Positions 2,828-28,078 of a stretch of 34,544 bases of DNA are shown here, in pieces (within the stretch, counting starts at the first letter, position 1; the number at the start of each line of letters is the position of its first letter). The notes below the pieces were generated by a model that saw nothing but the letters and a program-made list of their open reading frames with translations, ran no database searches and had not been told where the DNA came from. A program made the position numbers and the translations under genes. The stretch is from an uncultured Planctomycetaceae bacterium (lineage in GTDB: Bacteria > Planctomycetota > Phycisphaerae > SM23-33). The stretch lies in the NCBI GenBank assembly GCA_964575155.1, contig CAZNSB010000001.1:1-34544 (forward strand). Reading direction: 5' to 3'.

Positions 2828-2912
2828 GAGGGCCAACAGCGTTGCGGGCGGCGAGGGCACGTGTTATTGTCAGCGCGAATCTGCCTCGACAGCCAGGGGA
2901 AAGGACGACGAG

Positions 2913-6973: not shown

Positions 6974-7077
6974 TGCTCTGTCAAGCATCATTTTGCTGGT
7001 GGCACAGGTTTGTAACCTGTGCGAGACAAACAGGTTGAAAACCTGTTCCACCCACAGATTCAACCTTGACAGAGCAC
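6973..7077. mobile_element. 105-bp MITE-like non-autonomous element with 13-bp perfect terminal inverted repeats, flanked by a TA duplication in a CTAG target (IS630/Tc1-mariner style)
   Basis: The left TIR is gtgctctgtcaag (6973-6985) and the right TIR is cttgacagagcac (7065-7077). Flanking TA dinucleotides at 6971-6972 and 7078-7079 sit inside C-TA...TA-G. The interior is about 47% G+C by my count, against a much more GC-rich background. It contains two related perfect hairpins: GCACAGGTT-tgt-AACCTGTGC (7002-7022) and AACAGGTT-gaa-AACCTGTT (7029-7047). Each TIR carries an outward-facing TTGACA. Confidence 0.7.
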
Positions 7078-7114
7078 TAGCCGGGGGGTGAGACTTCCGG
7101 CGGAGGCCGGGGCG

Positions 7115-10100: not shown

Positions 10101-10243
10101 GCGGCAAGACGCCCGCCATGGTGAAAGTCGGCTTCGTGGCAGGAGGCAAGTTCGCGTCAGCCGGCCCGGCCGGCGGATACCCCGTCGGAAGCTGCCTCTT
10201 CGCCAGGGCCAGACACCCCGCTGGCTCAAGAAAAAGCCCTTAG
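7115..10243 (+). CDS. Large orphan bitopic membrane protein (1042 aa) with an alpha-helical cytoplasmic N-domain, one TM helix and a C-terminal region of about 670 aa predicted to be extracytoplasmic
   Basis: ATG-ATG at 7115/7118 follows GGAGG (7102-7106, 8-nt spacer); the track ORF begins at GTG 7088. The TM helix is GTFILVGTVAGVLLAGGAVWLAVL (about nt 8159-8230), preceded by RRRARVK. GC3 is consistently high. Stop TAG at 10241-10243. I recognise no family. Confidence 0.8.
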   Translation: MMPTAEAVEEIQSFLYGEAQLDGSRLLSLARAYAEACTRVNKKALQCRDLLHKGLRNEAICVAKEEYDLKEEFQLVSFDENDAWFSVCEKEGLPIPDLIDSDLVTTVVEEIYTGQGNIDRLLRVYRLMSLARAPVVDLIRVLRLIAKEDPRQRFWRQDVRTFEKARLDELHGLADEAAEKGDRSALEDIVAELTGKEWLERPPERLIRSAQKSLLPHRREAAQARFGQLLEEIRQAHSALDEPACREAVATWHATIDQTRIQPDAADADQVAQVEEWLRSLEAARQAEAEFQQACDTLDAALNDRKDRAVVEKELAQVRRFGQGMPSWLKDRAEGYLAELRRRARVKGTFILVGTVAGVLLAGGAVWLAVLRHRAGEEQRSWVNQITACLNKKDLAGAEKLLKDLERKDPGFHGSAEIGALRVRLAGEVEQVELAAKRERERKEHFAKAMALARSAGVTHPDRQALATAKGLARTPEEKGQVTDLEQRIAEARRVSTEERKAQIAATVAKAQVGIGALTSALDPVREPDLESVEKLAKRCTSFLDLLDGLPKKNPLSGSISRQRVAKAQEVIDEAVKKAKAPNPARFENLEAPAGACAELCRLLAASKELSKEQQALLAGAADAADKALKAAKARFETDRKMAADWKGISRLYARPEELGTALVAFASTYPNHAFAKDLAAAATMTTQCRSMGVWEGLVKPWRAAPPVSDAQEAERRHTALDQFRKDHGSGPWEDAAKRYAEYLRAAVDTLPKDRLPAQLADIQQFLNDDLIAASSMFVTRTGSRYYLLKNAAKEIKLNARVVGWRIDYVVDSRLTTKPESLRMDALALICAQGPIPAPQNALSKSIRQEIGRFDGPGWETLCLRLADLALQDTTVDPILRAGILKSLLESAAQFTPHQAEPIKKTADRFENLPLEVYWMDPKDEDANKARGQVARSLEEIDRKTLTRMIQDVHGGLDGLFPAPSRCAGIIFPRRGEVVLHKDLRDADLYVISGESGKTPAMVKVGFVAGGKFASAGPAGGYPVGSCLFARARHPAGSRKSP

Positions 10244-10252
10244 GGCTTCTTT
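10231..10252. terminator. Compact bidirectional hairpin lying on the overlapping convergent stop codons
   Basis: aaaaAAGCCCttaGGGCTTcttt forms a 6-bp stem (10234-10239 / 10243-10248) with loop tta, an A-run upstream and a T-rich stretch downstream. The plus-strand stop TAG (10241-10243) and the minus-strand stop TAA (10240-10242) share the loop. Confidence 0.4.
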
Positions 10253-11022
10253 CCGGACAGGAGCGTCCTCTTTGCCGCCTCGGCGGCGACGCTCGGACGC
10301 AAGGCGCCCGGAGAATACAGGTCGATCCCGCCGGCGCGGAGGTGCCCCGCCAGAGAGATGACCTTCCTGATCGCCTCGGTGCTTCGAGCCGACCCCTTCT
10401 GCGGTGCCTTCTCGGCGCCGGTGCGAGCGCAGAGCGTGCAGGAGATGACGCCGGCGCCCTGGCAGCGCGGGCAGACCACGGCGCCGGAGCCGCCGCAGTC
10501 GTTGCAGGTCGTCCCCTTGAGGGTGCCGACCCCGCGGCAGGTCGAGCACTTGGCGTGGCCCATCCCCCTGCACCTGGGGCAGTCCTCCCGGCCCGTGCCG
10601 AAGCAGCGCGGGCACCGCGCGGGAGGACGCCGGCCGACGCCGCCACGCGCGGAGAACATCTTCTCCAGCGGCGTCAGCAGGACCGAGTTGGCCAGTTCGA
10701 GCACGTAGGCCGATGCCGACGCCCTCTTCAGCTCGCGGGCCGCCAGGGCCCCGTCGCCCTGGAGGTGGGCCCGGAGCCCCTGCCGGAGGCTCTCCAGCGA
10801 CTCCAGCCGGTACCTGCGCTGATCCTTGCGGAGCCTGAGGAGCCTCCGGACGGCGGGGAGGTCCTTGGGGTTGGCCAGGACGGTCTTGCACAGCGATGCA
10901 ATCCGGCGGTCGACCTCGGCCGGCCTGAGGAGCTGCGAGAGGCCCCTCGGCGCCCGCCACAGCAGGGCGCCCACCAGGGCGCACAAGGCGCATGCCCGCG
11001 CGACGGCGGCGAACCGTTTCAT
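10240..11022 (-). CDS. Signal-anchored protein with six DnaJ-type CxxCxGxG zinc-finger repeats
   Basis: ATG at 11022 follows GGGGAAAGGG. The protein is 260 aa. The N-terminal hydrophobic segment is MKRFAAVARACALCALVGALLW. The repeats are CPRCFGTG, CPRCRGMG, CSTCRGVG, CNDCGGSG, CPRCQGAG and CTLCARTG (aa 137-202, nt 10417-10614). Confidence 0.85.
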   Translation of the reverse strand: MKRFAAVARACALCALVGALLWRAPRGLSQLLRPAEVDRRIASLCKTVLANPKDLPAVRRLLRLRKDQRRYRLESLESLRQGLRAHLQGDGALAARELKRASASAYVLELANSVLLTPLEKMFSARGGVGRRPPARCPRCFGTGREDCPRCRGMGHAKCSTCRGVGTLKGTTCNDCGGSGAVVCPRCQGAGVISCTLCARTGAEKAPQKGSARSTEAIRKVISLAGHLRAGGIDLYSPGALRPSVAAEAAKRTLLSGKKP

Positions 11023-11059
11023 CTTGCACCCTTTCCCCGGCCGGACCCGCCGCGGCGGG

Positions 11060-13609
11060 CTAGCTCCCGCACCGCACCAGCAGGTCCAGCAGGACCAGGT
11101 TGTAGTAGCAGCTCTCTCTCAGCTCCCGGACCACGTCCTTGACGTTGGCCAGGGCCTGGCGCCGGTCGCTGCGGGCCTTGGCCAGCGGCCCCTGGAGCTC
11201 TCCCTTGGCGTCGCAGGCCCGCACCAGCAGCTCCAGCAGCCCGCCCGTGGCGTCGAGACTGACCGCCGCCTGCTGCAGCGCGCCGTCGCTGGCCGCCAGC
11301 CGCGCCCCCGTGGTCGTCTCGATCGTCTCGGCCGGCGCGGAGAAGCTCTTCGCCTTGGGGTGCTCGCGGAGCAGCCTGAGCACCTGCCCGCGAAACGCCT
11401 CCAGGGCGCCGACGAGGTCGCCGCCCAGGTCCGGCGCCACGACGGTGGTGGGGCTGGCCAAGTCTGCGTCCGGCGGGGGGGCGGGCAGGCCCCACCGGTA
11501 GCTCTTCAGGCCGGCCGCGGCCGCCGAGGCGTAGTGCGCGGTGACGGCCAGCAGCTTGATGGAATCGGCGTCGGGCTCCCAGGCCGGCGGCTTGGGGGCG
11601 CCGACCGCCGGGGCCGGCGCCGCTGCTTGCCCGGCCCCCCAACGCGTCGCTTGGATGATCCGCGCCCAATCTGCCGCGCAGGACTTGCGCTGTGCGGCGT
11701 TGTTGACCATCGGCAAGACCACCCCGCGATATCCGCGGTACGTCCCCCCGGTGCCCTCGATGAGCGTCTGGGCGATCTGGTATGCCAGCTCGGCGCTGGG
11801 CGTGTGGTCGACAAGCTTGATCAGCTCCCGGGGGATGGTGGCGTCGCTCATGGACTTGAGGGCGCGGAGGACGCGGCTGGCGATCCTCATGTCGGCCCTG
11901 CGTGCTTTCGATTGACGTTGGAGCGCCTGTAGCAGGACCGCGGCGGCCTGGGTCGTGTCGAGCTTCCGCAGATCCTCGATGGCCTGGTAGCGGACGGCGA
12001 TGTTCGGAGAGATCAGGTCCACCTGGAGCTTCCTGGCGGGGTTCGCCGCCGGCTTCCCGGGCGCCGGCGCCGGCGGGGGCGGCCCCGAGGCCGCCGGGAC
12101 AGTCACTCCCCTCGTCAGGGCGCTGCGGCGATCGCTCGCCGAGGCCGCCGACCGCAGCTCGTCCTCCGACAACCAGCCCGAGGCGCCGGTCCACCGCGCC
12201 GCCTGGTTGCAGCAGGCCTTCATCGTCATGGCCACGTCCGTGAGGACCTCGTCGCGCGTCCTGGACCGCTCGTACGCCCGCCGGAACTCGGCCAGGAAGC
12301 CCCCGCCGGGCGATGGCGGCGCCGTCGGCGACAGCTCGCCGATGTCCGCCGCCGGCACCGGCTCCAGGCCGGGGCGGCTCGGGGGCTGTGGCACGAGCGG
12401 CGTCGGCGCCGGCGGGGGCGCCGCCGGGGGCGAATCGGTCGGAGGCTCGATCGGGAGCAACTGGCGGGGCGCCGGTTGCGCCGCCGGCGGGCGGGGGGAG
12501 GGCCGATCCGGCCTCTCCCAGTCGCCGGTGAGCGCCTCCGAGACCAGCGAGAAGGCGCTGGTCGGCGGGGTCGGGGGCTCCCAGAACCCGCCGAAGGCCA
12601 GCAGGAGCGCCATCAGGACAGCGACGGCGACGGCCGGGATGGCAACGACCTCGACCTGCGGGAAGGACCGGCGGGGCACGCCCCCCCCCGCCGGCGGGAG
12701 CGGCACGGGCGAGGTCGGCGCCGGCGAGGGGGAGCTCAGACACCGCTCCATCACCTGCCGGGCCCCCTCCGCCGCCAGCCCGATCGCCGCCGCCGCCTCC
12801 AGCAGCCTCGCACGGTCCTCGGCCGATGCCCGCCCCTGCGGGTGCATCGCCCGCACCTGCTGGGCGAACATATCCTCGATGGCCGCCCGGTCCCGGTCGT
12901 CGCGCCGCGCCTGTCGGCTCCGGAGGCGCTGGTCGATCCGCTCGGCGGCGAGGTCGGCGGGGATGCCCAGCCTCCTGGCCAGTTCCGTCAGCTTGCGCTC
13001 GTCCGCAGCGGCCAGCACGCCGCCCTCGATCTCCATGTCGATGACGCTGTCGAAGAATTGCAGCGCCTCGTCACTCGGCGGGCCCGCGGGCGCGGCCGGG
13101 GCCGGGATCTGCGCCAGGGCGGCCTCCACCTCCTGCTCGGGCAGGCCCAGCCGGCAGAGGCGTTCGGCCAGTTCCGGTCGCCTGGGGTGGTCCAAGGTGC
13201 CGTCGGGGGCGACCATGGAGGCGATGACCTGTCGGGCGGCCCGGACGAGGCGTTCCCTCTCGGCGCGGAACCTGCCGGGCCTCTTCGGGCGGGCCTCGCC
13301 GGCCACACGCTGCTGATACTCCGCCCGCCTCTGCGGGCTCAGCAGCGTCTCCGCCGCCTCTGCCAACTGCTTCTCGAACAGCATCACCATGGGGATGAAC
13401 TGGGGCCCGGGGATGTTCTGGCGAAGCTGCATCCTGCGCTCCCGCAGGGCCCGGCGGACGGCATCGGGGCTCACCTGGCGGGGGGAAAGCCCCAGCAGCT
13501 CGTACGGGGTGGGCTCCGTCTCCTTCTCGGGTATCCCCAGCAGTCTGTACAAGGCCTTGGCGTACAGCATGGTCAGGCTTCGTCGGATCGTCCCCGGCCG
13601 ACAGGTCAC
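11060..13609 (-). CDS. HPD-less J-like domain membrane protein with helical repeat modules, one TM helix, a Pro-rich linker and a HEAT-like C-terminal region
   Basis: The start is either GTG 13609 or ATG 13570 (MLYAKALYRLLGIP...), and neither has a clear SD. The J-like region is YELLGLSPRQVSPDAVRRALRERRMQLRQNIPGPQ...LLSPQRRAEYQ, with QNIPGP where the HPD motif would be. The TM helix is VVAIPAVAVAVLMALLLAFGGFW. HEAT-like sequence: ISPNIAVRYQAIEDLRKLDTTQAAAVLLQAL. Stop TAG at 11060-11062, 37 nt before the Zn-finger gene. Confidence 0.8.
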   Translation of the reverse strand: MTCRPGTIRRSLTMLYAKALYRLLGIPEKETEPTPYELLGLSPRQVSPDAVRRALRERRMQLRQNIPGPQFIPMVMLFEKQLAEAAETLLSPQRRAEYQQRVAGEARPKRPGRFRAERERLVRAARQVIASMVAPDGTLDHPRRPELAERLCRLGLPEQEVEAALAQIPAPAAPAGPPSDEALQFFDSVIDMEIEGGVLAAADERKLTELARRLGIPADLAAERIDQRLRSRQARRDDRDRAAIEDMFAQQVRAMHPQGRASAEDRARLLEAAAAIGLAAEGARQVMERCLSSPSPAPTSPVPLPPAGGGVPRRSFPQVEVVAIPAVAVAVLMALLLAFGGFWEPPTPPTSAFSLVSEALTGDWERPDRPSPRPPAAQPAPRQLLPIEPPTDSPPAAPPPAPTPLVPQPPSRPGLEPVPAADIGELSPTAPPSPGGGFLAEFRRAYERSRTRDEVLTDVAMTMKACCNQAARWTGASGWLSEDELRSAASASDRRSALTRGVTVPAASGPPPPAPAPGKPAANPARKLQVDLISPNIAVRYQAIEDLRKLDTTQAAAVLLQALQRQSKARRADMRIASRVLRALKSMSDATIPRELIKLVDHTPSAELAYQIAQTLIEGTGGTYRGYRGVVLPMVNNAAQRKSCAADWARIIQATRWGAGQAAAPAPAVGAPKPPAWEPDADSIKLLAVTAHYASAAAAGLKSYRWGLPAPPPDADLASPTTVVAPDLGGDLVGALEAFRGQVLRLLREHPKAKSFSAPAETIETTTGARLAASDGALQQAAVSLDATGGLLELLVRACDAKGELQGPLAKARSDRRQALANVKDVVRELRESCYYNLVLLDLLVRCGS

Positions 13610-13753: not shown

Positions 13754-14926
13754 ATGATCGCATTCGAATGCGAGAATTGCGGAAAGCCGTTGAGGGTCGC
13801 GACCCGGCTGGCGGGGAAACTGGCCAAGTGCCCGGGGTGCGGGCACGCCGTCCGGGTGCCCATCTCGACGATGCCCCCCGAGGAGGAGCCCGCCGGCGCC
13901 GCCCCGGCGGAGCCGCCCCAGGCCGGGGACGTCGCTCCCGCGGCGCCGGAGTTTGGGGACAGGCAGGCTCCGTGCGGCGAGGGCGAGCCGCCGGCCCCGG
14001 CGCCGGGGACGGACCAGCCGCCCGTCCCGGCGGCGCCCCCGCCGCAGGCGGGGGGCCCACTGGACCTCCGCGCCGGCGCGGCGCCCGCCGAGGACACGAC
14101 GGCGGACGTCCTCGCCGGCGCCCTGATGCTGGCGACCTTCCTGATCCCCTGGGTGGTGCTGCCCAACGGGGTCTTCATGTCCTGGGACGTCGCCAGGGAG
14201 GCCGGCGCCGCCTTCAACATGTTTCTCGTCGGCGCGTGGGTGATCGGCATTGCCGTCCTCCTCGTCAACCTCTCCGTCCGAGGCATCCAGCGATGGAGGT
14301 GGAACGCGGGGCTGGGGGCGCTGGGCATGGTCCTGACCCTGATCATGCTGGGGCAGTTCTCGCACGCCGACTGGAGCACCAGCCCGCTGCCGAACTCCAG
14401 GACCGTGGCCATCGTCTGCGTGCTGCTCCTGGTGGCCCTGATCGTGGTGGAGAACCTGCAACTGCGGTTCCAGGCCAATCAGTCGCTGGCGACGGCCGGG
14501 CGGGTGGTGGGCGCGCTGGTGATCGCGGCCTTCGCCGCCGGTCTGGTCAAGGGGGTCGCCAATTACAGCGACCAGCCGGTGGACCTGCGGGAGAGGTCCG
14601 CCCTGGACCTGGTGTTCCTGTCGTTCTGGCGGCTGGCGATGATCGCGGCGGGCGTGGCGGCGACGCGCCCGCCCACCGCCGCGGTGTCCCGGTTGGTCCT
14701 GACGGGTCTGTACGTGTCGCTGGGCGTGCTGGGGGCCTACCTGATCGTCCGCCCCCCCTTCCTGTTCGAGATCGGCGGGATCGCGCTGACGTTCCTGAAC
14801 CTCATCATGATCGTCGGGGGGCTGATCCTCCTCGCCTGCCGGGGGTTCATCGAGGCCATCAGCGAGCGCATCCGAGCTTCGCGCCCGCCCCCCGCCGCGG
14901 CCGCACCCGGGGCAAAAACCGCTTGA
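13754..14926 (+). CDS. N-terminal zinc-ribbon protein fused to a polytopic (about 8 TM) membrane domain
   Basis: ATG 13754; 390 aa. The ribbon is MIAFECENCGKPLRVATRLAGKLAKCPGCGHAVRVP. A Pro/Ala-rich linker is followed by about 8 hydrophobic helices. Stop TGA at 14924-14926. Confidence 0.8.
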   Translation: MIAFECENCGKPLRVATRLAGKLAKCPGCGHAVRVPISTMPPEEEPAGAAPAEPPQAGDVAPAAPEFGDRQAPCGEGEPPAPAPGTDQPPVPAAPPPQAGGPLDLRAGAAPAEDTTADVLAGALMLATFLIPWVVLPNGVFMSWDVAREAGAAFNMFLVGAWVIGIAVLLVNLSVRGIQRWRWNAGLGALGMVLTLIMLGQFSHADWSTSPLPNSRTVAIVCVLLLVALIVVENLQLRFQANQSLATAGRVVGALVIAAFAAGLVKGVANYSDQPVDLRERSALDLVFLSFWRLAMIAAGVAATRPPTAAVSRLVLTGLYVSLGVLGAYLIVRPPFLFEIGGIALTFLNLIMIVGGLILLACRGFIEAISERIRASRPPPAAAAPGAKTA

Positions 14927-15016: not shown

Positions 15017-16297
15017 ATGATCTGTTTCCAGTGCGACAACTGCCAGAAGGATCTGCGGGTCCCTGACCGCCTGGCCGGAAGGATGGCCAGGTGTCCCCGC
15101 TGCGGAAAGGCGGTCCGAGTGCCCATGGTCACCTTCGCGCCGGGCCCGCCCGCCCCGCCTGCCGGGCCTCACTCGCCGCCGGCGCGGGCGCGGGCGGGCG
15201 TTGGCGCCGCCGGGCGGCCCGTCCCCCCCGGCCCGCCGGCCGACGCGACGGCCCCGCAGCCCGCGGCGGGGGCGGGGGCGCCGCCGCCCGGCCCGGACGA
15301 GGGGGAGGAGGCGGCGCCGAGGGAGGTGGTCGGGCCGAAGCACCGCAGCGACTCCGTCGCCGGGTGGGCGGTCTCCCTGATCCTCCACAGCCTCATCCTG
15401 GTCGGCTTCTCCGGATACACGTGGATGGCGGGCCTCGGGACCGGCGGCGGCCGGGCCGAGGCCGACATGGGCGTCGTCATCGACACCGGCGGCGAGATCT
15501 CCTCCGGCGCCGCCGAGGCCCTCCAGATGCAGGCCGACGTCGGCGAGGTGGCGCTTACCGGCCTCAGCCAGGAACCGGCCGGCATCGAGCCGATCACCGG
15601 CCTGGGGCCGGGCGTGTCGGCCTCGTCGCCGATCGGCCCGCTGGTGGCGTCGGCGCTGTGCGGGGGCGGGGGCGGACCCGCGGCGCGCGGCGACCTGTCG
15701 ATGATCGCCGGCGGCGGCGTGGGCGGGGGGGCGAGCTTCTTCGGCATCGTCACCCCGGCGGACGCCAGCAAGTTCGTTTACGTCCTGGACTACTCCGGCA
15801 GCATGCAGGGGAAAAAGCTCGCGCTGGTCAAGGAAGAGCTGCTCCGCGCGATCAGCGCCCTGAAGCAACGGATGAAGTTCTACATCATCTTCTACGACGA
15901 CGACTACGAGGCCATGGCCGCCGAGAAGCTGGTCCCGGCGACCCAGCAGAACAAGCGCCAGTACCTCACCTGGGCCAACGGGGTCCACGGGGGCGGGGGG
16001 ACCGACCCGACCGAGGCCATGAAACTGGCCCTGTCGCTGAAGCCTCACGCCATCTGGCTGCTCTCGGACGGCATATTCAACCCCCACGCGTGCGACGTGA
16101 TCCGCCGGGCCAACCCCCGGGCGCGGGTCCGCATCCACACGATCGCGTTCTGGGACAACGCCGGGCAGTCGCTGCTGGAGCGGATCGCCAAGGAGAATCG
16201 CGGGCGGTGCCGTTTCGTGCCCGGGCCGGGGTCGGCGCCGCCAGGCGCCCGCCCCGCCGGCCGGCGGCATCCGCGAAGGACAATCCGCCGCCCATGA
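15017..16297 (+). CDS. Zinc-ribbon, Pro/Ala-rich linker, TonB-like (S-x3-H) TM anchor, Gly-rich linker and von Willebrand factor A domain protein
   Basis: ATG 15017; 426 aa. The ribbon is MICFQCDNCQKDLRVPDRLAGRMARCPRCGKAVRVP. The TM helix is WAVSLILHSLILVGFSGY (S120 at nt 15374, H124 at nt 15386). The vWA MIDAS motif DxSxS is DYSGS (nt 15788-15802), followed by GGGTD and LLSDG. Confidence 0.85.
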   Translation: MICFQCDNCQKDLRVPDRLAGRMARCPRCGKAVRVPMVTFAPGPPAPPAGPHSPPARARAGVGAAGRPVPPGPPADATAPQPAAGAGAPPPGPDEGEEAAPREVVGPKHRSDSVAGWAVSLILHSLILVGFSGYTWMAGLGTGGGRAEADMGVVIDTGGEISSGAAEALQMQADVGEVALTGLSQEPAGIEPITGLGPGVSASSPIGPLVASALCGGGGGPAARGDLSMIAGGGVGGGASFFGIVTPADASKFVYVLDYSGSMQGKKLALVKEELLRAISALKQRMKFYIIFYDDDYEAMAAEKLVPATQQNKRQYLTWANGVHGGGGTDPTEAMKLALSLKPHAIWLLSDGIFNPHACDVIRRANPRARVRIHTIAFWDNAGQSLLERIAKENRGRCRFVPGPGSAPPGARPAGRRHPRRTIRRP

Positions 16298-16310
16298 AAG
16301 GGCCGTGCCC

Positions 16311-17060
16311 ATGAGAAGGACCGCGTGGCTGTCTGTCATCGTACTCGTTCTGCTGCTGCTTTGGGTCTGGGCGGGTCAGGCGGCCGCCCAGGCCCCGCCC
16401 GACAGCGCGGACGCCCAGGTCGGGGGAAAGAAGATCTCCCTGTGGCGCATGATCCGGGCCGGCGGGTTCATCGGGTTCGTCATCATCCTGCTGTCGCTGG
16501 TGGCCACGGCGCTGATCATCGAGCATTTCCTCTCGATCCGGCGGGACCGGCTGGTGCCGCCGGTCCTTGCGGACCGGCTGGGGGCGTTCCTGGACGCCGG
16601 CCAGCACGAGCAGGCGCAGCACGAGTGCGAGCAGGACGCGTCGTTCCTGGGCGCGGTGGTCAACGCCGGGCTGGGGCAGCGGGGAGGGATGTTCGGGTTC
16701 TTCGACATGCAGACCGCCATGCAGGAGGTCAGCGAGCGCGAGGTCTCCAAACTGTACCGCAAGATCGAGTACCTCGCGTTCATCGCGGGCGCGGCCCCGA
16801 TGCTGGGCCTGCTGGGGACGGTGACGGGCATGATCGTCTCGTTCAACGTGATCGCCCAGAGCGAGGGGACCGCCAAGCCGTCGCAACTGGCCGAGGGCAT
16901 CTGGGAGGCGCTGATCACCACCGTCGAGGGGCTGGTCGTGGCCATCCCCGTCATGTTCTTCGTGTCCTTCTTCCGGGGGCGGATCGACAGCTTCGTCGCC
17001 GAGGCCGAGGTCGTCGTCGAGAAACTCATGGGACGCTTCCGCAAAGCGCCCGCGGAATAG
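16311..17060 (+). CDS. exbB: MotA/TolQ/ExbB-family proton channel protein
   Basis: ATG 16311 follows GAAAGGG (alternative GTG at 16305). The family motif PMLGLLGTVTGMI is present, with three TM helices. The symbol denotes the family, not proven orthology (TolQ/AglR-like is equally possible). Confidence 0.85.
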   Translation: MRRTAWLSVIVLVLLLLWVWAGQAAAQAPPDSADAQVGGKKISLWRMIRAGGFIGFVIILLSLVATALIIEHFLSIRRDRLVPPVLADRLGAFLDAGQHEQAQHECEQDASFLGAVVNAGLGQRGGMFGFFDMQTAMQEVSEREVSKLYRKIEYLAFIAGAAPMLGLLGTVTGMIVSFNVIAQSEGTAKPSQLAEGIWEALITTVEGLVVAIPVMFFVSFFRGRIDSFVAEAEVVVEKLMGRFRKAPAE

Positions 17061-17071
17061 GAGCCGGACCC

Positions 17072-17506
17072 ATGAGACTGCACAAGCCGCGACGCAGCTA
17101 CGGGTGCGAAATCAACATGACCCCGATGATCGACATCGTCTTCCAGTTGATCATCTTCTTCATGACGGCGACGCAACTGGTCCGGATCGAGGCGGAGGAC
17201 CTGGCGCTGCCCGAGGCCGGCGAGGGCGAGCAGGTCAGCCAGCTCACCACCGGGCCGGTGGTGGTGAACGTCCATGAGGACGGGCGGATCGTCATCTCGC
17301 ACCAGACCGTCCGCCCCGCCGGGCTGGGCCCGGCCCTCGCCGAGCATCTCAAGCAGCGGGCCCCCGCCGACCGGTCGGTGGTGATCCGCGGGGACCGCAA
17401 CGCCGCCTGGGAAAAGATCACCACGGTCCTTCAGGCCTGCGCGGGCAGCCGGATCGGGCGCGTGCGCGTCGCGGTCGTCGAGCCGCCCGCCCAGCCGTCC
17501 CCGTGA
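17072..17506 (+). CDS. exbD: ExbD/TolR-family biopolymer transport protein (copy 1)
   Basis: ATG 17072 follows AGGAG. INMTPMIDIVFQLIIFFM is the canonical ExbD/TolR N-terminal TM motif, including the conserved Asp. Confidence 0.85.
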   Translation: MRLHKPRRSYGCEINMTPMIDIVFQLIIFFMTATQLVRIEAEDLALPEAGEGEQVSQLTTGPVVVNVHEDGRIVISHQTVRPAGLGPALAEHLKQRAPADRSVVIRGDRNAAWEKITTVLQACAGSRIGRVRVAVVEPPAQPSP

Positions 17507-17519
17507 GGAGGCCCCAGGC

Positions 17520-17945
17520 ATGTTGCTCACGCGCCAGCGGCCCAAACGCTCCTCGACGGGGCTGAACATGACCCCGATGATCGACGCCATCTTCCTCCTG
17601 CTCATTTTCTTCATGTGCTCGTCCTCCCTGCGGTCCTTCGAGAGCCAGCTTCCGACGCAGATCTCGCAGCGCGGCAGCGGGCAGAAGGAAGAGCCCTACC
17701 CGCCGATCCGGATTCGCCTGACGAAAACGGCCGCCGGCGTGCTCGTGCTCTGCGACGAGCAGCCGTGCAGCGACTTCCACGACCTCACGGGCCGGCTGAA
17801 AAAGAGGCGGGCCATCGCCGACGCCGCGGTGATTATCGAAGGCGGCGGGCGGGTGCCTTTCGGGCGCATGGTGGCGGCCCTGGACGCCTGTCACCAGGCC
17901 GACCTGCGGCGGGTGGCCTTCTCGCCGACAGGAGGCGCCAAGTGA
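17520..17945 (+). CDS. exbD: ExbD/TolR-family biopolymer transport protein (copy 2)
   Basis: ATG 17520 follows GAGGAGG. The motif LNMTPMIDAIFLLLIFFM is present. The stop TGA overlaps the next gene's GTG (GTGA, 17942-17945). Confidence 0.85.
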   Translation: MLLTRQRPKRSSTGLNMTPMIDAIFLLLIFFMCSSSLRSFESQLPTQISQRGSGQKEEPYPPIRIRLTKTAAGVLVLCDEQPCSDFHDLTGRLKKRRAIADAAVIIEGGGRVPFGRMVAALDACHQADLRRVAFSPTGGAK

Positions 17946-20443
17946 AAGCCACGTCCCCCCGGACGCCCCCGGTTGCGATCTTGCTGCTGGCCCTGGCGCC
18001 GGCGGGCGCCGCCGGCGCCGCACAAACCGCCGGCCGCATCGAGAAACTGCTCGCCCAGGCCGAGGCCGCCGACAACCTGGACCACGCCGAAAAGAAAATC
18101 GACGAAGCCGAAAGCCAGCTCAAGTGGGCCGGCAGGGGAATGGACGCGAGGTTCCTGAGGGCGGACGTCCTCCGGACGCGCGGGCGGGTCAAGATCAAGG
18201 CCTGGCAGAAGCACCTGGCCGGCGAGGAGAAGCGGGCGGCCGGGGTGAAGCTGCTGAAACAGGCCCTCGACGGATACGACGCGCTCATCCAGGAGAACGA
18301 GGGCATCGCCAAGAAGATCGAGGACACCACGGAGGGCGACCCGGAAACGAACAGGAAATACCGCGAGGCGCTCAGCTACAGGAACCGTGCGGTCTACGCG
18401 CAGGCGTGGGGCGAGTACAACCTCGCCCTCGGGCAGGCGTTCTCGCACGACCGGAAGAGGTTCCTCGACCGGGCGGTCCTCCGCTTCAGCCACTCCACGG
18501 CGGGCGTGACGGACGCCGGCGGCTTCGAGGCGGACGGCTCGGACGCCAAGCCGATCATCATCGACTGCCTGCTGGGGCAGGCCCTGTGCTACTACGAGCA
18601 GCGGTCGTTCGCCGACGCCGAGAAGTATCTCAACCTGGCCGCCGACGGCGCCCGCAAGGGCGCCGCGGTGACGAAGACCCTGCCCTTCGTCGTCCAGCGG
18701 ATCACCTACCTGCGGGTGAAGATCCATCAGGACCGCGGCGAGCACGAGAAGGCCGATGAGGTCGCCGGGAAGTACTTCGACGCCCTTCCGGGCGGTCACA
18801 GGCTGGACGCGCTGGAGCGGGGCATCGCCGTCGAACGCGCCCGCAGCCTCGCCGCCCTGGCCGACCCGCAGCGAAGCCCGGGGAAGGACCACCGGGCCTT
18901 CCGGGCCCGGCTGGAGGCGGCGGCGCGGACGGTCAACGCCTACGGCGGCCAGTGGCGGGCGGAGATGGACAGGATCCTCCGCAAGCCCCCCGGCGCCGTG
19001 CTGGGCCCCGCCGTGGCCAGGGCGAGAGAGCTCTTCAACGCCAGGCGCTACCGCCAGGCCGCCGATGCCGCCGACGCCGGACTGAAGGACGCCAAGCTCA
19101 AGCCCCCGGCCCGGGCCGAGCTGCGCTACATCCGGTTCGCCGCCTACTGGAACCTCGCCCGGTGGCGCGACGCCCACCTGGCGGCGGCGGCGTTCCTCCG
19201 GCTCAACCCCACCGACCCCCGCGCCGCGCACGTCTGCGGGAAGGCCATCCACGCCGGACACAGGGCCCTCCAGGCCAGCCCCCCCCTCCCCCAGGCCGAC
19301 CTCGCCCAATTCTTCGACCATGCCGAGAAAAACTTCCCCACCCACCCCGAGGTCCGGATGATCCCCTGGTACCGCGGAAGCCTGCTGCTGTCGGCCGGGG
19401 AGTATGCCCGGGCGGAACGGGCGCTCAGCGGGGTACCGCCCGGCTCGCCGGCGTATCGCCTGGCGCAGTACGGCATGGCCATGTCCGCCTACAAGCAGGC
19501 GGAGGCCCTGGCCGGAGCCAAGGGCCGGGATGCCGCCGGGGTCGAGGGCCATCTCTCTCGGGCCGCCCAAGCCGTCCGCCGATTTGCCGCCGCCCTCACC
19601 GCAGGCCAGCAGCTCTCGCCCCAGGAGCGAGAAGCGGCCAGGAAGGTCATCGAGGTCGGCCAGGCAGCCGCCCAGCGCATGCTCAACCTGCCCCAGCCCA
19701 AGCCCGACGCCGCCGGCGACCTGATACGAACCATCGACGCCCTGTCGATCAAGACCGGGCAGACCGCCGCCGCCGGCCTGGCGCCCCGGATCCTGTTGAG
19801 CGTCCGCAAGGGCGACGTCAAGGGGGCCCTGAAGATGATCGACGCCGCCCTGGCCAATCCCGGCCGGGACGCCGGGCAGCTCGTCCAGAGCCTCGTCGCG
19901 GCCAGCGGCCTGCTGGAGCAGGAGGTCCCAAAGCGGATCCAGGCCGGGAAGGCCGCCGAGGCCGCCGCCCTCGCCAACAAGCTGGTCGACATCTACCGCT
20001 TCCTGTTCGCCCACGTCATCCGCAGCACGGACAAGGGCGTGCTCGCCCAGGAGCGAGCCGTCCGCCGCCGCCTCGCCGCCGCCCTCCAGCGCGTCGGGCG
20101 ATTCGGCGAGTCCATCGATCACTATGAATGGCTGGGCAAGAGGCTGCCGAGAAACGAATCGGGCGACGTGATCCGCGGGCTGGGGATCGCCTACGAAAAG
20201 ACGGGCAAGTACCGACAGGCCATGGCCAACTGGGGACAACTCGCCGGTGGACTGAAGACGGGGACCCCCGGCTGGTGCGAGGCCTGCTACCACCTGATCG
20301 ACTGCCAGCTCCTGTCCGGGCAGCGCGACGCCGCCCGCAAGCGGCTGGCCTTCTTCAGGGCCCAGTACCCCAACATCGCCGACGCCGAATGGAAAAAGCG
20401 CTTCGACGACCTGGAGGCCCGCATCGGCAAGGGCGGCAAGTAG
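17942..20443 (+). CDS. Secreted TPR-repeat protein (833 aa)
   Basis: GTG 17942 overlaps the upstream stop. The signal-peptide-like N-terminus is VKATSPRTPPVAILLLALAPAGAAGAAQ. There are many TPR-like helical pairs, for example LLGQALCYYEQRSFADAEKYLNLA and IRGLGIAYEKTGKYRQAMANWGQLA. Confidence 0.8.
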   Translation: MKATSPRTPPVAILLLALAPAGAAGAAQTAGRIEKLLAQAEAADNLDHAEKKIDEAESQLKWAGRGMDARFLRADVLRTRGRVKIKAWQKHLAGEEKRAAGVKLLKQALDGYDALIQENEGIAKKIEDTTEGDPETNRKYREALSYRNRAVYAQAWGEYNLALGQAFSHDRKRFLDRAVLRFSHSTAGVTDAGGFEADGSDAKPIIIDCLLGQALCYYEQRSFADAEKYLNLAADGARKGAAVTKTLPFVVQRITYLRVKIHQDRGEHEKADEVAGKYFDALPGGHRLDALERGIAVERARSLAALADPQRSPGKDHRAFRARLEAAARTVNAYGGQWRAEMDRILRKPPGAVLGPAVARARELFNARRYRQAADAADAGLKDAKLKPPARAELRYIRFAAYWNLARWRDAHLAAAAFLRLNPTDPRAAHVCGKAIHAGHRALQASPPLPQADLAQFFDHAEKNFPTHPEVRMIPWYRGSLLLSAGEYARAERALSGVPPGSPAYRLAQYGMAMSAYKQAEALAGAKGRDAAGVEGHLSRAAQAVRRFAAALTAGQQLSPQEREAARKVIEVGQAAAQRMLNLPQPKPDAAGDLIRTIDALSIKTGQTAAAGLAPRILLSVRKGDVKGALKMIDAALANPGRDAGQLVQSLVAASGLLEQEVPKRIQAGKAAEAAALANKLVDIYRFLFAHVIRSTDKGVLAQERAVRRRLAAALQRVGRFGESIDHYEWLGKRLPRNESGDVIRGLGIAYEKTGKYRQAMANWGQLAGGLKTGTPGWCEACYHLIDCQLLSGQRDAARKRLAFFRAQYPNIADAEWKKRFDDLEARIGKGGK

Positions 20444-21542: not shown

Positions 21543-24500
21543 CTATCTTGAGGCGGGCCGCGTGGGGGCCGCGGCTTCGAGGCCGTACCGCATCGCCTCT
21601 TCGTCCCACCTGAGTCTGTGCCGGTGCTGCCGGTGCCACCGCCGCCACGCGGCGCCGGCCTTGACGGGGGCGGCCGTGAGGACCTTGAAGTCGCGGACCT
21701 CGGCGGGCCGCTCCAGGCCGGGCGACTTGGTGAAGATGATCCAGATCGAGTACGACGCCTGTCGCTGAATGGTGACGTTGTCCTTGTGCCGCTCGAGCAT
21801 CTCGAAGAAGGCCGGCAGCACGCGCTTGTCGGGGATGTTCATGAGGATGTCGGTGGTCGTGTCCGATCCCCAGTCCGGCTCGGTCATCTTGATGCGGATG
21901 AGTCCCGGCACGATCCGGCGCTGCTGGGCGGCGGAGAGGGCCGCCGGGTGGAGCCGGTAGGTCCGCTTCTTCACCGCCCCGATGAAGGAGCGGCCCCAGG
22001 GCTTGCGCTGGGCCAGGGCGTCCACCATGATGGCGGTGCTTCGCTTGGTGGGGACGTCGCGTAGGCACCCGGCCGCCGCGGAGGCGACCCGCGGGTCGTC
22101 CGACGCCAGCAGAGACTCCAGGACGTCCGTGAGGAACTCCCGCCAGGGCGCGTCGGTCTGGAGCTTCTTGCTCAGGCCCGGCCGGCGGGTGAGGCGGTTG
22201 CGCAATCGGGCCAGGATCGCCACGGTCACCTCGGTGTCGTCCTCGCGCAGGAGCAGCACGGGCAGCTCCTCCGCCTCGCCCTCGTAGTCGATGCCGACGA
22301 GGACGTGGTTGCTCCAGCCGCGCTCGTCGGGATCGACGGAGAACAGCAGCCTGCGGGCCCATTCCACGATCCGCTTGCGGGCCTTGTCCTTCCGAGCCAA
22401 GTGGACCAGCAGCTTGGCCGCATACCTGTGAGCCCCGCCCCATCCCAGGCCGCTTCGCGCGAACGGCTCGTCGTAGAACCTTGCGAACAGCAGCGGCACC
22501 GCCTCGCGGGCGTGCTCGACGATCTCCGGCCGCAGCTCGACCTGGGCCTTCGCGGAGACCTTGAAGTACCATCCCAGCAGGTACCGGACCCGGCCTGTGT
22601 GCTGAGGCCGGATGTCGATGCCGGCGAGATCGCCGAGCGCCGCGACGAGCTGGGCGCGGGCCGGCCCGCCGACCGGAATCGCCGTCTTCTCGATCGCCTC
22701 GGGCTTGGCCCCCTCCAGCCGGCGGCGGCAGATCTCCGCGAAGCGCCGGCCGCCCACCTTCAGCTCCTGGAGCTTCTTTAGGTCCGGCCTGATCACGGCC
22801 TCCTTGCCGTCGGCGAGAAAGACCACGAACGACGGGTGCTTCGACGCCGCCAGCAGCTTCCGCACGGTGCTCTTGTCCTGCGGCGGCCGGGCGAGCAGGA
22901 TCGCCCCGCCCTTGCCGCCGGGGCGGACGCTCAACTGCCGCATGAGGCGGCCGAGCGCGACCGCGCCCGGCGTCGTCCGCTGCGGCAGCTTCGGATCGTC
23001 GCGCAGCATGGCCCAGAGCTGCCTCTTCACCTCGGTGATCCCGGCCTGGTCCAGCTCCAGCAGCCGCCGGCGGACCTCGTGCGGCTCGGTGCCGTCATGG
23101 AAGTTCGCCAAGACGTACAGGTACCGCCCGACGGCCTTCGCCATCTCCAGCGCCCGGTCGTGGGCGCGGGCCTTGCTGAGGATCCTGGCGCGGAGCAAGG
23201 CTCGATCGTTCCGCCCCAGTCCAGCGCCCGCCCGGAGGCGCCAGTACAGCACGTTCAGCGGCTGCCAGCGGCGGTCCGGGACGTCCGTCTCCAGGTGCCG
23301 CAGCGAGATCAGGCCCTTGTCCGACTCCAGCCACACCACGTGCAAGCGGCGGCCGCGCACGGCCAGCCTGCTGATCTGCCCCGCCGCGCCGCGCCCGGCC
23401 CCGCCGTGCCACAGGCAGACCGCCTCGGTGGCGCCCCCGGGGCCGAGTCGAAGCAGGTACAGGTGGCCGGACTCGGCGATGACCGCCAACGGCCGACCTT
23501 TGGGATCGGCCGCCAGGCTGGGGTAGGACCAGCCGTAGTTGGGAATCATGGCCATCCGCGTCCCGGGCAGCAGGAACTGCCCGCGGCGCCGGATGCGCCC
23601 CTTGGCGTCGGGCCCGAACAGGACGTACGCCCCCTGCCACGGGCCGGGACGATACAAGCTCGCCAGCACGAAGGCGCGGCCCTCGGAGATCTGATGCCGG
23701 AAAGCCGTCTTGTGCAGCAGCAGCTTCGGCTCGCCCCACTGCCCCTCCCGGCAGGTCAGGTGGTACGTGGAGATCGACTGGTAGTCGGGGGTCTGACCGG
23801 CCGCGAAGACGTGCAGGGCGCCGTTCGTCCAACGGATTCTGGGGTACGTCAGGTTGTAGCCGGCGACGCCCGGCAGCACGCGGGTCTCTTGCCAGTTTCC
23901 CCCGACGCACCGGCGGTAGTGGATCACCTGCCGCGTCCGGTTGTCCTTCCACGGGGACCACACCAGGTGCAGGCTGCCGGAGCCGTCCAGGCAGGCGTCC
24001 AGCCCGTGCACCAGCTTCGGGTGCTCCGACAGCAGGCTCCGGGGCGCGGACCACTCGCCGCCGCGCGGGCGGCGGAACACCAGCAGGTCGTTCAGGCCGG
24101 GCTTGAGGCCCGAGCGCGTCGGCGCCAGGCGGGCGTTGTGGCCGAAACAGAGGACGTAGGCGGTGTCCTCGCCGTCCACGAGCAGTCGCAGGCCGTTCAC
24201 GTACAGCTCGTCGTCCAGCAGCACCCGTGGCTTCGACCATTCCGCACCCCCTTGGCTCGTGTAGTATAGATTGGTCCGCCGGCGGCGCCGGTTTCCCAGG
24301 TGATCGGGCCCCGGGACCAGCCGGCTACCGCAGAAGGCCAAGTGCAGCCGGCCGGTGCTGTCGAACGCCATCGCCGGCCGGCCGAGCTGCTCGACGCCTT
24401 TGTGGACGTCCTTCACGGACGCCTTGGGGCGTGCGGCCAGGGCGATGGTGAGCGGGGAGATCGCCTTCATCCGCGCGGAGATCTCATCCACGCTCAGGTG

Positions 24501-24659
24501 GTGCGTCAGCGCCAGCAGGGCCTCGGTGTCGCCGTCCTGCACGAGGCGCTTCAGGAGCCGCTCGGCGCCGGCCGCAGGCGCCTCTCCGGCCGAGAAGGAC
24601 GCCCCGATCAGCAACGCCAGCACGCCGGCCAGCGGCGCCGTCCTGAGCACGCCCGCCAT
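21543..24659 (-). CDS. Secreted hypothetical protein (1038 aa) with an N-terminal beta-rich (propeller-like) region and a helical-repeat C-terminal half
   Basis: ATG at 24659 follows GGAGAGGGAAG. The signal peptide is MAGVLRTAPLAGVLALLIGASFSAGEA. W/G-rich strands recur (LHLAF, LHLVW, LHVFA, LHVVW). I recognise no catalytic motif. Confidence 0.8.
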   Translation of the reverse strand: MAGVLRTAPLAGVLALLIGASFSAGEAPAAGAERLLKRLVQDGDTEALLALTHHLSVDEISARMKAISPLTIALAARPKASVKDVHKGVEQLGRPAMAFDSTGRLHLAFCGSRLVPGPDHLGNRRRRRTNLYYTSQGGAEWSKPRVLLDDELYVNGLRLLVDGEDTAYVLCFGHNARLAPTRSGLKPGLNDLLVFRRPRGGEWSAPRSLLSEHPKLVHGLDACLDGSGSLHLVWSPWKDNRTRQVIHYRRCVGGNWQETRVLPGVAGYNLTYPRIRWTNGALHVFAAGQTPDYQSISTYHLTCREGQWGEPKLLLHKTAFRHQISEGRAFVLASLYRPGPWQGAYVLFGPDAKGRIRRRGQFLLPGTRMAMIPNYGWSYPSLAADPKGRPLAVIAESGHLYLLRLGPGGATEAVCLWHGGAGRGAAGQISRLAVRGRRLHVVWLESDKGLISLRHLETDVPDRRWQPLNVLYWRLRAGAGLGRNDRALLRARILSKARAHDRALEMAKAVGRYLYVLANFHDGTEPHEVRRRLLELDQAGITEVKRQLWAMLRDDPKLPQRTTPGAVALGRLMRQLSVRPGGKGGAILLARPPQDKSTVRKLLAASKHPSFVVFLADGKEAVIRPDLKKLQELKVGGRRFAEICRRRLEGAKPEAIEKTAIPVGGPARAQLVAALGDLAGIDIRPQHTGRVRYLLGWYFKVSAKAQVELRPEIVEHAREAVPLLFARFYDEPFARSGLGWGGAHRYAAKLLVHLARKDKARKRIVEWARRLLFSVDPDERGWSNHVLVGIDYEGEAEELPVLLLREDDTEVTVAILARLRNRLTRRPGLSKKLQTDAPWREFLTDVLESLLASDDPRVASAAAGCLRDVPTKRSTAIMVDALAQRKPWGRSFIGAVKKRTYRLHPAALSAAQQRRIVPGLIRIKMTEPDWGSDTTTDILMNIPDKRVLPAFFEMLERHKDNVTIQRQASYSIWIIFTKSPGLERPAEVRDFKVLTAAPVKAGAAWRRWHRQHRHRLRWDEEAMRYGLEAAAPTRPASR

Positions 24660-25308
24660 CTTCCCTCTCCGTCAAACCCCGACGGCCGCAGCCGCGGCAC
24701 CCATCATTCTGCATCCGACGGACCACCAGCACTCGTGGTCGCCCCGGCTATGGACGTTTCCGGGTGACGGTGAAGCGGTCGCCGGTCCTGCCGGCCGCGC
24801 GGAAGCCGAGGGTGCCAGCATTCCCCAGATGGGCTCGCGCCTGCGACCACCGTGGGTCTTTTCTATCATGCTATCACGATGCGGGAGATCAGCAAGCACT
24901 TTCCCTGGCCCCGGCAAGGAGCATCGGGCCGTTGCCGGGCCATTATGTTGCTCGAAACGGCCTGCATGCGGGCCTCCGTTGCCGCTCCGGACGGACCGTC
25001 CCTGTTGCCTCCGCGTCCTCCCCCTGTCTCGTCACGTGCCGCCGTCATCTCAGCACCGGCTCCCGCGGCCGCCGGTAGCGATCATGCCAGTAGCGGCCAG
25101 GCATGGCCGTCCGGGGTCGCATCGTCCGCGGAGACCCGGACGATGCAGGTACAACTTCGCAAGCTCTCCTCCATCAAGCCGTACAAGGGCAAGCCGACGT
25201 GCGGACGGGAGAGCTGCAACATCCGGTCCTGGCCGGCCGGCACTACAGGCGCCCCTCCGTCTGCCACGCCGGCGAGTTCTTCCTTCGGCGGCGCCGCGGG
25301 GGCGTCTT

Positions 25309-27876: not shown

Positions 27877-28078
27877 AGATTCTCCTTTCGCTCCCGTCAT
27901 CGCCTCGGCGTTTCGCTCGCCCGCCCGATCCGGCGGGTCCCGCCCGGCGGCGGTCTCTTACCTAACCCCAAACAACCCGGATGTCACCGGGTTGCTGGAA
28001 AAATCACCGCCCGGCCGACAGGCGGCGCCGGGGGGCGTTTTTGGCGTTGTTCGCCCCCGTCCGGGGCTTTCCGGTAGA

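Follow-up and report, generated by a model that had tools for sequence, protein, structure and literature searches.

The window analyzed here is a 34,544-nucleotide (nt) stretch of DNA from an uncultured planctomycete, with a G+C content of 66-75%. Of concern is its locus at 15017-20443 on the plus strand, where five co-directional genes encode a vWA protein, an ExbB/TolQ-like protein, two ExbD/TolR-like proteins and a TPR protein. The reading with the best support, to which we assign a probability of roughly 0.7, is that this locus specifies a Ton/Tol-type machine driven by the proton-motive force (PMF), in which a vWA protein anchored in the inner membrane takes the place of TonB or TolA as transducer.

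This protein belongs to the family of SHLS-anchored vWA force transducers put forward in Mol Biol Evol 2025;42(6):msaf138 (PMC12204202; referred to below as msaf138). Within that family it represents a rare sub-type that has a zinc ribbon on the cytoplasmic side and shows frequent linkage to DO-GTPase/GAP1-N2 genes. The idea of a vWA transducer predates the window, having been published as a prediction. An earlier sequence-only reading of the same DNA had proposed a PMF-energized vWA transducer and had called it an undescribed output for this motor family. Its docking idea is upheld by conservation of the anchor residues, by the transmembrane (TM) Asp of ExbD and by synteny, while its claim to novelty fails, as msaf138 already contains the same family and hypothesis, and its argument from a Pro/Ala-rich rod is lost as well.

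Anchor helix, head and motor

The vWA protein of 426 amino acids (aa) possesses a single strongly hydrophobic segment, ...GWAVSLILHSLILVGFSGYTW..., which peaks at residues 113-136 and carries Ser120 (codon 15374-15376) and His124 (codon 15386-15388). The sequence-only reading had described this S-x3-H helix with correct coordinates and residue numbers. In cryo-electron microscopy (cryo-EM) structures, the contact residues are S16/H20 of TonB and S18/H22 of TolA, and the TonB pair touches TM1 of ExbB. Leu and Ser form the less conserved half of the SHLS motif in Ton, according to the cryo-EM work; at these positions the vWA protein has F131 and T135, respectively, both of which are conservative replacements.

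Conservation of the anchor is concentrated in the two contact residues. Ser and His are invariant in all 31 helices of the family, as the sequence-only reading would lead one to expect, and Trp is kept at -3 in 26 of them, with the other helix positions variable. For instance, the +11 position of the SHLS motif is occupied by Met, Leu, Ala or Phe across the family, and 10 of the 31 have Thr at +15. The constancy of Ser and His is found in proteins whose vWA domains are only 25-45% identical, and an alignment of 21 anchor regions has no invariant column besides these two.

Across the metagenome-assembled genome (MAG) to which the window belongs, S-x3-H falls within a hydrophobic segment in 12 of 3432 filtered open reading frames (ORFs). 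Four of these segments fall in the zones of up to 6 kb around the seven MotA_ExbB loci, zones that take up 1.4% of the genome, versus ~0.17 expected. Two of the four motor-linked ORFs are tandem paralogues with the zinc ribbon-TM-vWA architecture on contig C105. The second cluster to which they belong (114-9376, minus strand) consists of two tandem zinc ribbon-TM(W-x2-S-x3-H)-vWA genes followed by a 383-aa TPR protein, ExbB, ExbD, ExbD and an 899-aa helical protein, and it falls in the widespread clade described below.

The head of the protein scores above cut-off with Pfam VWA, VWA_3 and VWA_2. Motifs of the metal ion-dependent adhesion site (MIDAS) begin at residues 258 (DYSGS), 326 (GGGTD) and 350 (SDG), a complete set, as had been recognized from the sequence alone. 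The residues D258, S260, S262, T329 and D351 are unchanged across 21 homologues, which indicates that the metal site is under selection. An AlphaFold2 (AF2) monomer model made from 11 homologues comprises a four-stranded zinc ribbon (residues 1-40; predicted local distance difference test score, pLDDT, >90), a disordered segment (41-108), a long helix (110-140), a second disordered segment (141-237) that fits a domain II of ~100 residues, and a confident vWA fold (240-405). Foldseek matched the vWA domain best to its MIDAS-bearing counterparts in ITIH, calcium-channel alpha2delta, CLCA1 and CMG2, with a probability of 1.00 against those of ITIH, alpha2delta and CMG2.

The N-terminal zinc ribbon, which CxxC counts place in about half of the vWA family, is omitted from the database gene call (P0001), as this begins at Met36/37. 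The long ORF of 426 aa is nonetheless supported, because homologues keep the ribbon and because the upstream gene (13754-14926) begins with a paralogous ribbon (62% identity over 40 aa). The ribbon must be cytoplasmic, and the vWA protein therefore has an N-in topology like that of TonB. A Pro/Ala-rich stretch, to which the sequence-only reading had drawn attention, is present at residues 40-112 (29% Pro, 23% Ala), but it precedes the TM helix, in the part of the chain that joins the zinc ribbon to the membrane. Being cytoplasmic, it is no stand-in for the periplasmic rod of TonB.

On the other side of the membrane, the sequence ADMGVVIDTG (residues 149-158) is placed 13 residues past the TM helix. 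The D-box of E. coli TonB, QPISVTMVTPAD (residues 43-54), lies ~11 residues past the helix and is captured by ExbD. At the motif, the sub-family consensus in alignment A2 is (E/D)VGIV, locus L010 has PIPVAIVDDEP, and similar alternating hydrophobic motifs occur at the equivalent place in other clades across the family. Judged by position and pattern, ADMGVVIDTG may play the role of the TonB D-box, and it appears to fit the "motor box" of msaf138.

The genes of the locus are spaced by 13, 11 and 13 nt, followed by a 4-nt overlap. The first of these gaps separates the vWA stop codon (TGA, 16295-16297) from the exbB start (ATG, 16311) and is just as first reported. The assignment of the four downstream genes as exbB, exbD, exbD and TPR has been borne out by Pfam (Table 1) and, for the last of them, by an AF2 solenoid of ~37 helices with a mean pLDDT of 82. 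ExbB keeps the Thr ring (Thr-bearing motifs), the A-I-P of TM3 and, in TM1, the Ser that contacts TonB/TolA, and the TM Asp is kept by every ExbD of every locus examined. By NCBIfam, the window motor is slightly nearer to TolQ/TolR than to ExbB/ExbD. Its ExbB is below the cut-offs of both TolQ and ExbB, and the ExbB and ExbD scores are far under the TolQ/TolR equivalog cut-offs. The TPR protein is syntenic in all window-type loci, and its model retrieved only generic long TPR scaffolds from Foldseek, with low TM-scores. Homologues of it occur in only four of 401 sampled genomes of the phylum, and the window sub-type is therefore rare.

Synteny and phylogeny of the vWA family

A search for relatives with the narrower alignment A2 yielded loci from MAGs of Planctomycetota, with Phycisphaerae predominating. 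The synteny census covered TM-anchored relatives with a C-terminal vWA domain. In this set, 23 members with S-x3-H lie within 4.5 kb of ExbB (20 tabulated rows, locus L101 and the two C105 paralogues; the tally from the tree is 22 plus the window) and eight do not, several of the latter being at contig ends. Members without S-x3-H are fewer: three still adjoin ExbB, and four have neither the motif nor ExbB. The tight linkage of vWA and exbB seen in the window is kept in relatives.

In a tree of vWA domains the family falls into two halves, one being a widespread clade and the other holding the window; the Tichowtungia reference protein of msaf138 could not be placed in it. Gene order in the widespread clade is vWA-(small TPR)-ExbB-ExbD-ExbD-large TPR, without J-like or GAP1 genes. 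The window clade is made up of the window, L010 and L008 (support 96/90), then L101. Its order is vWA-ExbB-ExbD-ExbD-TPR, then a gene of 800-1080 aa, then one of ~250 aa. Where DNA was available, these two genes proved to be homologues of an HPD-less J-like protein and of a protein with five CxxCxGxG repeats, both of which are also encoded in the window, where the pair is inverted upstream (10240-13609, minus strand).

The entire module, vWA-ExbB-ExbD-ExbD-TPR-J-like-ZnF, is found exactly in L008, L010, L101, L102 and the P0005 locus, and the synteny of vWA with exbB-exbD-exbD-TPR that was first seen in the window thus recurs in relatives. By component, a tolQ-like gene, two tolR-like genes and a TPR gene are neighbors in the window, L008, L010, L015, L101, L102 and the P0005 locus. 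The J-like gene comes after the TPR gene in L008, L010, L100, L101 and L102, and the CxxCxGxG gene after the J-like gene in the same loci except L102. The J-like protein has one TM helix at ~residue 321 and a large periplasmic part, and a Pfam search with it gave no match. The 390-aa zinc-ribbon gene with seven TM helices (13754-14926) was not found beside the module in other loci.

A motor-less clade (L013, L014, L027 and L021; internal support 94/82) is sister to the window clade with weak support. No ExbB is found near its members, and both Ser and His have been lost. Three of the four (L013, L014 and L027) adjoin DO-GTPase/GAP1 genes.

Table 1. Features of the window that belong to, or neighbor, the vWA-ExbBD locus
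Feature	Position	Strand	Evidence
vWA protein, ZnR-TM(S-x3-H)-linker-vWA, 426 aa, proposed force transducer	15017..16297	+	Pfam VWA/VWA_3/VWA_2, AF2, Foldseek
N-terminal cytoplasmic zinc ribbon (ZnR) of vWA protein, C5-x2-C8 ... C26-x2-C29	15017..15121	+	Four short strands, pLDDT >90
Pro/Ala-rich disordered linker of vWA protein, cytoplasmic side, residues 40-112	15134..15352	+	Composition; pLDDT <50
TM helix of vWA protein, W117-x2-S120-x3-H124 then F131, T135; TonB/TolA-type motor-docking motif	15353..15424	+	Family alignment
D-box/"motor box"-like motif ADMGVVIDTG, residues 149-158 of vWA protein	15461..15490	+	Conservation
Gly-rich disordered periplasmic linker of vWA protein, domain II equivalent, ~80-100 residues	15491..15736	+	Composition; pLDDT <50
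vWA domain with complete MIDAS (D258, S260, S262, T329, D351)	15737..16231	+	21 homologues; fold model
ExbB/TolQ-like proton channel subunit, 249 aa, signal-peptide-like N-terminus	16311..17060	+	Pfam MotA_ExbB E=4.5e-29
ExbD/TolR-like 1, 144 aa, TM Asp in TPMIDIVF	17072..17506	+	Pfam ExbD 1.1e-22
ExbD/TolR-like 2, 141 aa, TM Asp in TPMIDAIF, 31% identity to ExbD1	17520..17945	+	Pfam ExbD 1.9e-21
Secreted all-alpha TPR-like solenoid, 833 aa, GTG start overlapping exbD2 stop	17942..20443	+	Signal-peptide-like N-terminus, AF2, Foldseek
HPD-less J-like bitopic protein, 849 aa, co-conserved module member	11060..13609	-	Synteny in relatives
Secreted or anchored protein, 260 aa, five CxxCxGxG repeats (DnaJ/BSD2-type cysteine-rich domain)	10240..11022	-	Weak BSD2_CRD match
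390-aa protein: paralogous zinc ribbon, Pro-rich linker, ~7 TM helices	13754..14926	+	Sequence comparison
DO-GTPase	2913-4232	+	Weak DO-GTPase2 match
GAP1-N2/GAP1-M bitopic protein	4229-6973	+	Pfam GAP1-N2 7.8e-25, GAP1-M 5.4e-11
1051-aa bitopic protein, third gene of GTPase-centric trio	7088-10243	+	Context

Proposed mechanism and comparison with known systems

In the proposed machine, ExbB would form a pentameric channel and the two paralogous ExbDs a heterodimeric axle, as expected from their family; the TM Asp is present in both. The single helix of the vWA protein would dock on the outside of ExbB via S120/H124, in the manner of the TonB and TolA contact pairs, and ADMGVVIDTG, a short and putatively strand-prone motif, would be captured by the periplasmic domains of ExbD in the way the TonB D-box is. 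A flexible, Gly-rich tether of ~90 residues carries the MIDAS-competent vWA head, which is predicted to grip an acidic residue of a putative periplasmic or outer-membrane partner in a metal-dependent fashion. Rotation of the motor would then pull or remodel this partner. The TPR solenoid of 833 aa is a constant partner, as are the J-like bitopic protein and the CxxCxGxG protein; a role as scaffold or target is probable for these three.

Several observations weigh against such a machine. At least five members with S-x3-H, including L019, L041, L044 and L045, have no ExbB within 10 kb, and their genomes carry 9-11 ExbB paralogues. TM1 of ExbB has Thr, Val or Ile at what we take to be the contact-Trp site (by-eye register against E. 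coli TolQ/ExbB), the C105 paralogue being the exception. When a profile of the anchor and linker (A3) was run against PDB sequences and Pfam with E up to 10, it returned no TonB or TolA and chance matches only; the resemblance to the TonB helix is therefore one of motif, not demonstrated homology. Moreover, the D-box-like motif has no strand in the AF2 monomer, a single-chain model in which it is coil with pLDDT <50, and the periplasmic linker (residues 135-245) is 26% Gly and 5% Pro, with no Pro-rich rod. Locus L010 keeps its motor though Tyr replaces His124 in its vWA protein and in a tandem paralogue alike, from which it follows that the His is not indispensable or that this lineage has re-tuned the interface. 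Finally, the family proposal of msaf138 rests on synteny and on AlphaFold3 (AF3) models, in which the conserved His sits on the motor at the site used by TonB/TolA.

A change in ExbB TM1 that might compensate for the His-to-Tyr replacement of L010 was looked for, and nothing interpretable emerged. The sharing of this replacement by two anchors of one motor suggests that the position matters to the interface. Directly upstream of the L010 vWA gene, P0022 (6941-7999, plus strand) encodes a zinc ribbon, a TM helix and a D-box-like motif together with a different C-terminal domain that has no Pfam match.

Among known systems, the closest is that of msaf138. It describes motor-driven vWA force transducers of the Tichowtungia aerotolerans type, with an SHLS helix, a motor box and a vWA head, whose gene neighbors in bacteria of the Planctomycetes-Verrucomicrobia-Chlamydiae (PVC) group are tolQ, two heterologous tolR and a TPR gene. 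The distribution given there covers Proteobacteria, Planctomycetes, Verrucomicrobia, Bacteroidetes and Rhodothermaeota. The window protein shares the single S/H helix, disorder with a motor-box-like motif, a domain II of ~100 residues, the C-terminal vWA domain, adjacency to tolQ, two tolR and TPR genes, and a PVC host. It differs in three respects from the family as portrayed there. The vWA gene is first in the window, whereas the paper has it downstream of TPR-tolQ-tolR-tolR; the window protein adds a zinc ribbon and a Pro/Ala-rich N-terminal extension (~110 residues), whereas the His of the paper's reference protein is at position 35; and the window module has constant J-like and CxxCxGxG partners and frequent DO-GTPase/GAP1-N2 linkage.

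A second family in msaf138, TPH-vWA, has a vWA domain in place of TolR, a TM helix with an ExbD-like Asp, and tolQ alone with no tolR. The window protein was rejected as an ExbD replacement of this kind: its helix is without a TM Asp, and two ExbD genes are present. In a Pirellulales MAG, the gene for a TM-anchored vWA protein without S/H (L047; 10001-11181, plus strand) precedes an ExbB-like gene by 135 nt, and the locus yielded no ExbD; this vWA protein may belong to the second family of msaf138.

E. coli TonB-ExbB-ExbD shares with the window an N-in, single-pass S-x3-H anchor, a D-box-like motif 11-13 residues past the helix, and ExbB/ExbD with the TM Asp. In contrast to Ton, the window has two different ExbD paralogues and neither a TonB_C domain nor a Pro-rich periplasmic rod. 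Its transducer bears a MIDAS vWA head, so that binding of a target would be metal-mediated and not by strand addition to a TonB box. The sequence-only reading had remarked that no gene for a TonB C-terminal domain occurs in the window. No tonB adjoins the vWA-exbBD locus, and no TonB_C (PF03544) match was obtained in the window or in the whole 5.8-Mb MAG, where no TonB-dependent receptor barrels and no TolB_N were found either. The remark is thus correct, but little can be built on it: completeness of the MAG is 75%, and TonB_C is present in 13 of 41 relatives, so that these absences are weak evidence. Moreover, genome G101 has the same module and three TonB_C genes elsewhere, and the module is therefore not simply a replacement for TonB.

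TolA-TolQ-TolR/CpoB is similar in its SHLS-type anchor, in the slight leaning of the window motor toward TolQ/TolR, and in having a periplasmic TPR partner in the operon (CpoB in Tol-Pal). Unlike Tol-Pal, the window lacks a TolA domain III, its MAG lacks a detectable TolB_N, its motor scores are far below TolQ/TolR cut-offs, and its TPR protein, at 833 aa, is not CpoB-sized. The Agl-Glt machinery of Myxococcus xanthus likewise has one TolQ-like and two TolR-like subunits, TPR proteins and a vWA protein functionally tied to a PMF motor (CglB); 2023 work on the Myxococcus vWA adhesin is cited in msaf138. The M. xanthus vWA protein is an outer-membrane lipoprotein, however, and the transducers GltG/GltJ have TonB_C-like domains, whereas the window vWA domain is fused to an inner-membrane anchor. 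The parallel with AglRQS/Glt drawn in the sequence-only reading therefore survives for subunit count, and as a resemblance only; no Glt homologue came to light, although no search was aimed at one.

DO-GTPase/GAP1-N2 genes, rival readings and significance

Upstream of the module, the window encodes a trio consisting of a GTPase, a GAP1-N2/GAP1-M protein and a 1051-aa protein. The second of these scores 88 bits with GAP1-N2 and 43 bits with GAP1-M, each above cut-off. The GTPase carries a zinc ribbon, matches DO-GTPase2 weakly (E=0.0029) and shares 37-55% identity with the genes that stand before GAP1 in L013, L014, L027 and L100. GAP1-N2-type DO-GTPase systems, termed "GTPase-centric", have been assigned a predicted role in conflict or immunity (eLife 2020;9:e52696, PMC7159879). 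According to that paper, they occur in planctomycetes and verrucomicrobia, their variable partners include vWA, DnaJ-fused, TPR and TM-rich proteins, and zinc-ribbon GTPases are among their components. The window is like these systems in its zinc-ribbon GTPase, GAP1-N2/GAP1-M protein and large TM protein. Unlike their description in the main text of PMC7159879, which makes no mention of ExbB, ExbD, TolQ, MotA or TonB, it adds a Ton/Tol-type motor and an SHLS-anchored vWA protein. Conversely, GTPases are not mentioned in the accessible part of msaf138.

The trio is found beside the vWA-ExbBD module in four of seven window-type loci (the window, L010, L100 in genome G408, and the P0005 locus) and in three arrangements, namely divergent blocks in the window, GAP1...vWA...J-like in L010 and the P0005 locus, and TPR-J-like-ZnF-GTPase-GAP1 in G408. 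As this adjacency survives rearrangement, and as vWA paralogues of the same clade occur in the motor-less GAP1 clusters, a functional link between GAP1 and the module can be argued. One tentative form of it, which we consider possible but would not favor, is that transducer and motor constitute half of a GTPase-gated, envelope-spanning machine. The paralogous ribbons of the transducer and of the 7-TM protein would dock to the zinc-ribbon DO-GTPase/GAP1-N2 proteins, and the nucleotide state would gate pulling, or else load on the head would be reported inward.

The same linkage lends itself to a rival account, in which vWA-ExbBD is the envelope arm, as sensor or effector, of a DO-GTPase/GAP1-N2 system and responds to envelope perturbation, for example by phage, in place of a housekeeping role. 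It would thereby resemble Zorya, a MotAB-like motor that responds to phage attack. The docking mechanism is compatible with this account and only the role differs. Adjacency of the trio in three gene orders, the regular neighborhood of same-clade vWA paralogues and DO-GTPase/GAP1 genes in L013, L014 and L027, the correspondence of vWA, DnaJ-fused, TPR and TM components and zinc-ribbon GTPases to described GAP1-N2 systems, and the rare, patchy occurrence of the sub-type (the TPR homologues in four of 401 genomes) all speak for it. Nevertheless, no GAP1 was found in the flanks of the other three of the seven loci (L008, L101 and L102), and the complete genome G004 has its GAP1 2.6 Mb away from the vWA-ExbBD cluster. 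PADLOC defense models assigned no system to any component, the sole match being a coiled-coil match of GAP1 to LmuB, and the immune role of GAP1 systems is itself only a prediction (PMC7159879). On balance, we regard a role as envelope arm as unlikely.

Considerably less probable is that the vWA protein has an accessory or assembly role and that the real transducer is the J-like bitopic protein or GAP1. The GAP1-N2 protein (4229-6973, plus strand) does have a TM helix at ~residue 420 of the ORF from 3992, then a coiled coil, and then a Pro/Lys rod like domain II of TonB, in which PEPPKPPVV occurs twice and is followed by PKPPKPPKPTPPTPP. Its PEPPKPPVV/PKPPKPPKP repeats, the constancy of the J-like protein with its large periplasmic part, and the floppy, Gly-rich linker of the vWA protein would suit such an arrangement. 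However, S-x3-H is confined to the helix of the vWA protein, those of the GAP1, 1051-aa and J-like proteins having neither Ser nor His; the widespread sister type of cluster pairs vWA and motor without J-like or GAP1 genes; and GAP1 is absent from three of the seven loci.

That S-x3-H is coincidental or structural, in an ordinary BatA/BatB- or CoxE-type membrane vWA protein beside an ExbBD operon that serves an unlinked TonB, can hardly be credited. BatB does appear at rank 25 in the structural search with the vWA domain, a TonB could be missed in a MAG of this completeness, and relatives possess TonB_C. Against this, the Ser and His are invariant over deep divergence and lost exactly in the motor-less clade, MoxR and DUF58 are not among the window genes, no TonB_C, TonB-dependent receptor barrel or TolB_N is found in the MAG, and the tight vWA-exbB linkage (13 nt in the window) is kept in relatives. 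An aerotolerance protein of the BatA/BatB type was itself rejected, as neither the MoxR ATPase nor DUF58 is encoded by the window genes.

Other motor clusters and neighbors were also encountered. On contig C4 of the MAG (24115-27680, plus strand), ExbB-ExbD are followed by a 137-aa single-pass protein and then by a 532-aa polytopic protein with an S-x3-H helix and a C-terminal DUF4159 domain (E=7.5e-30), which may be another non-TonB partner of a motor. On contig C199 (1346-9008), a gene for a 570-aa ExbB-like protein and two ExbD-like genes adjoin those for a 1088-aa protein and a further J-like protein, so that the pairing of J-like proteins with motors is a recurrent one in this MAG. A different motor-linked architecture is seen in a Verrucomicrobiales MAG (L033; 3304-10525, plus strand), where genes for a 908-aa TPR protein, ExbB and a single ExbD are followed by one for a 1073-aa protein whose TM helix is devoid of S/H and which carries a low-complexity region of ~800 residues, rich in Ser and Ala, and a vWA domain at its C-terminus. 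Lastly, the window encodes an 863-aa protein without a Pfam match (25309-27900, minus strand), of which about five near-full-length paralogues with 41-61% identity are present in the MAG.

To our knowledge, PMF-driven 5:2 motors (Ton, Tol, Mot, Agl, GldLM and Zorya) are the only known means by which energy is delivered to the outer envelope of diderm bacteria. If the reading of the locus as a PMF-coupled vWA transducer is true, periplasmic force transducers would include a third kind, defined by a TonB-type anchor that bears a metal-dependent, integrin-like head. In PVC bacteria, which in many cases are without TonB, TolA and TonB-dependent receptors, this kind may then be the principal one. 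To the existing prediction the window adds independent comparative support, in the form of Ser/His invariance, loss of both residues in a motor-less sister clade and motif specificity within one genome. It also adds a module of seven defined genes, among which candidate partners of the vWA head can be named, and the analysis contributes a natural His-to-Tyr variant (L010) that bears on the strictness of the docking residue. A further addition is the repeated, rearranged linkage to DO-GTPase/GAP1-N2 genes, which would make both orphan systems experimentally approachable together. Were the GTPase-gated machine to prove true, it would join two separately predicted systems (eLife 2020; Mol Biol Evol 2025) that have never been connected in print, and the orphan GAP1-N2 "conflict" switch would gain a mechanical output.

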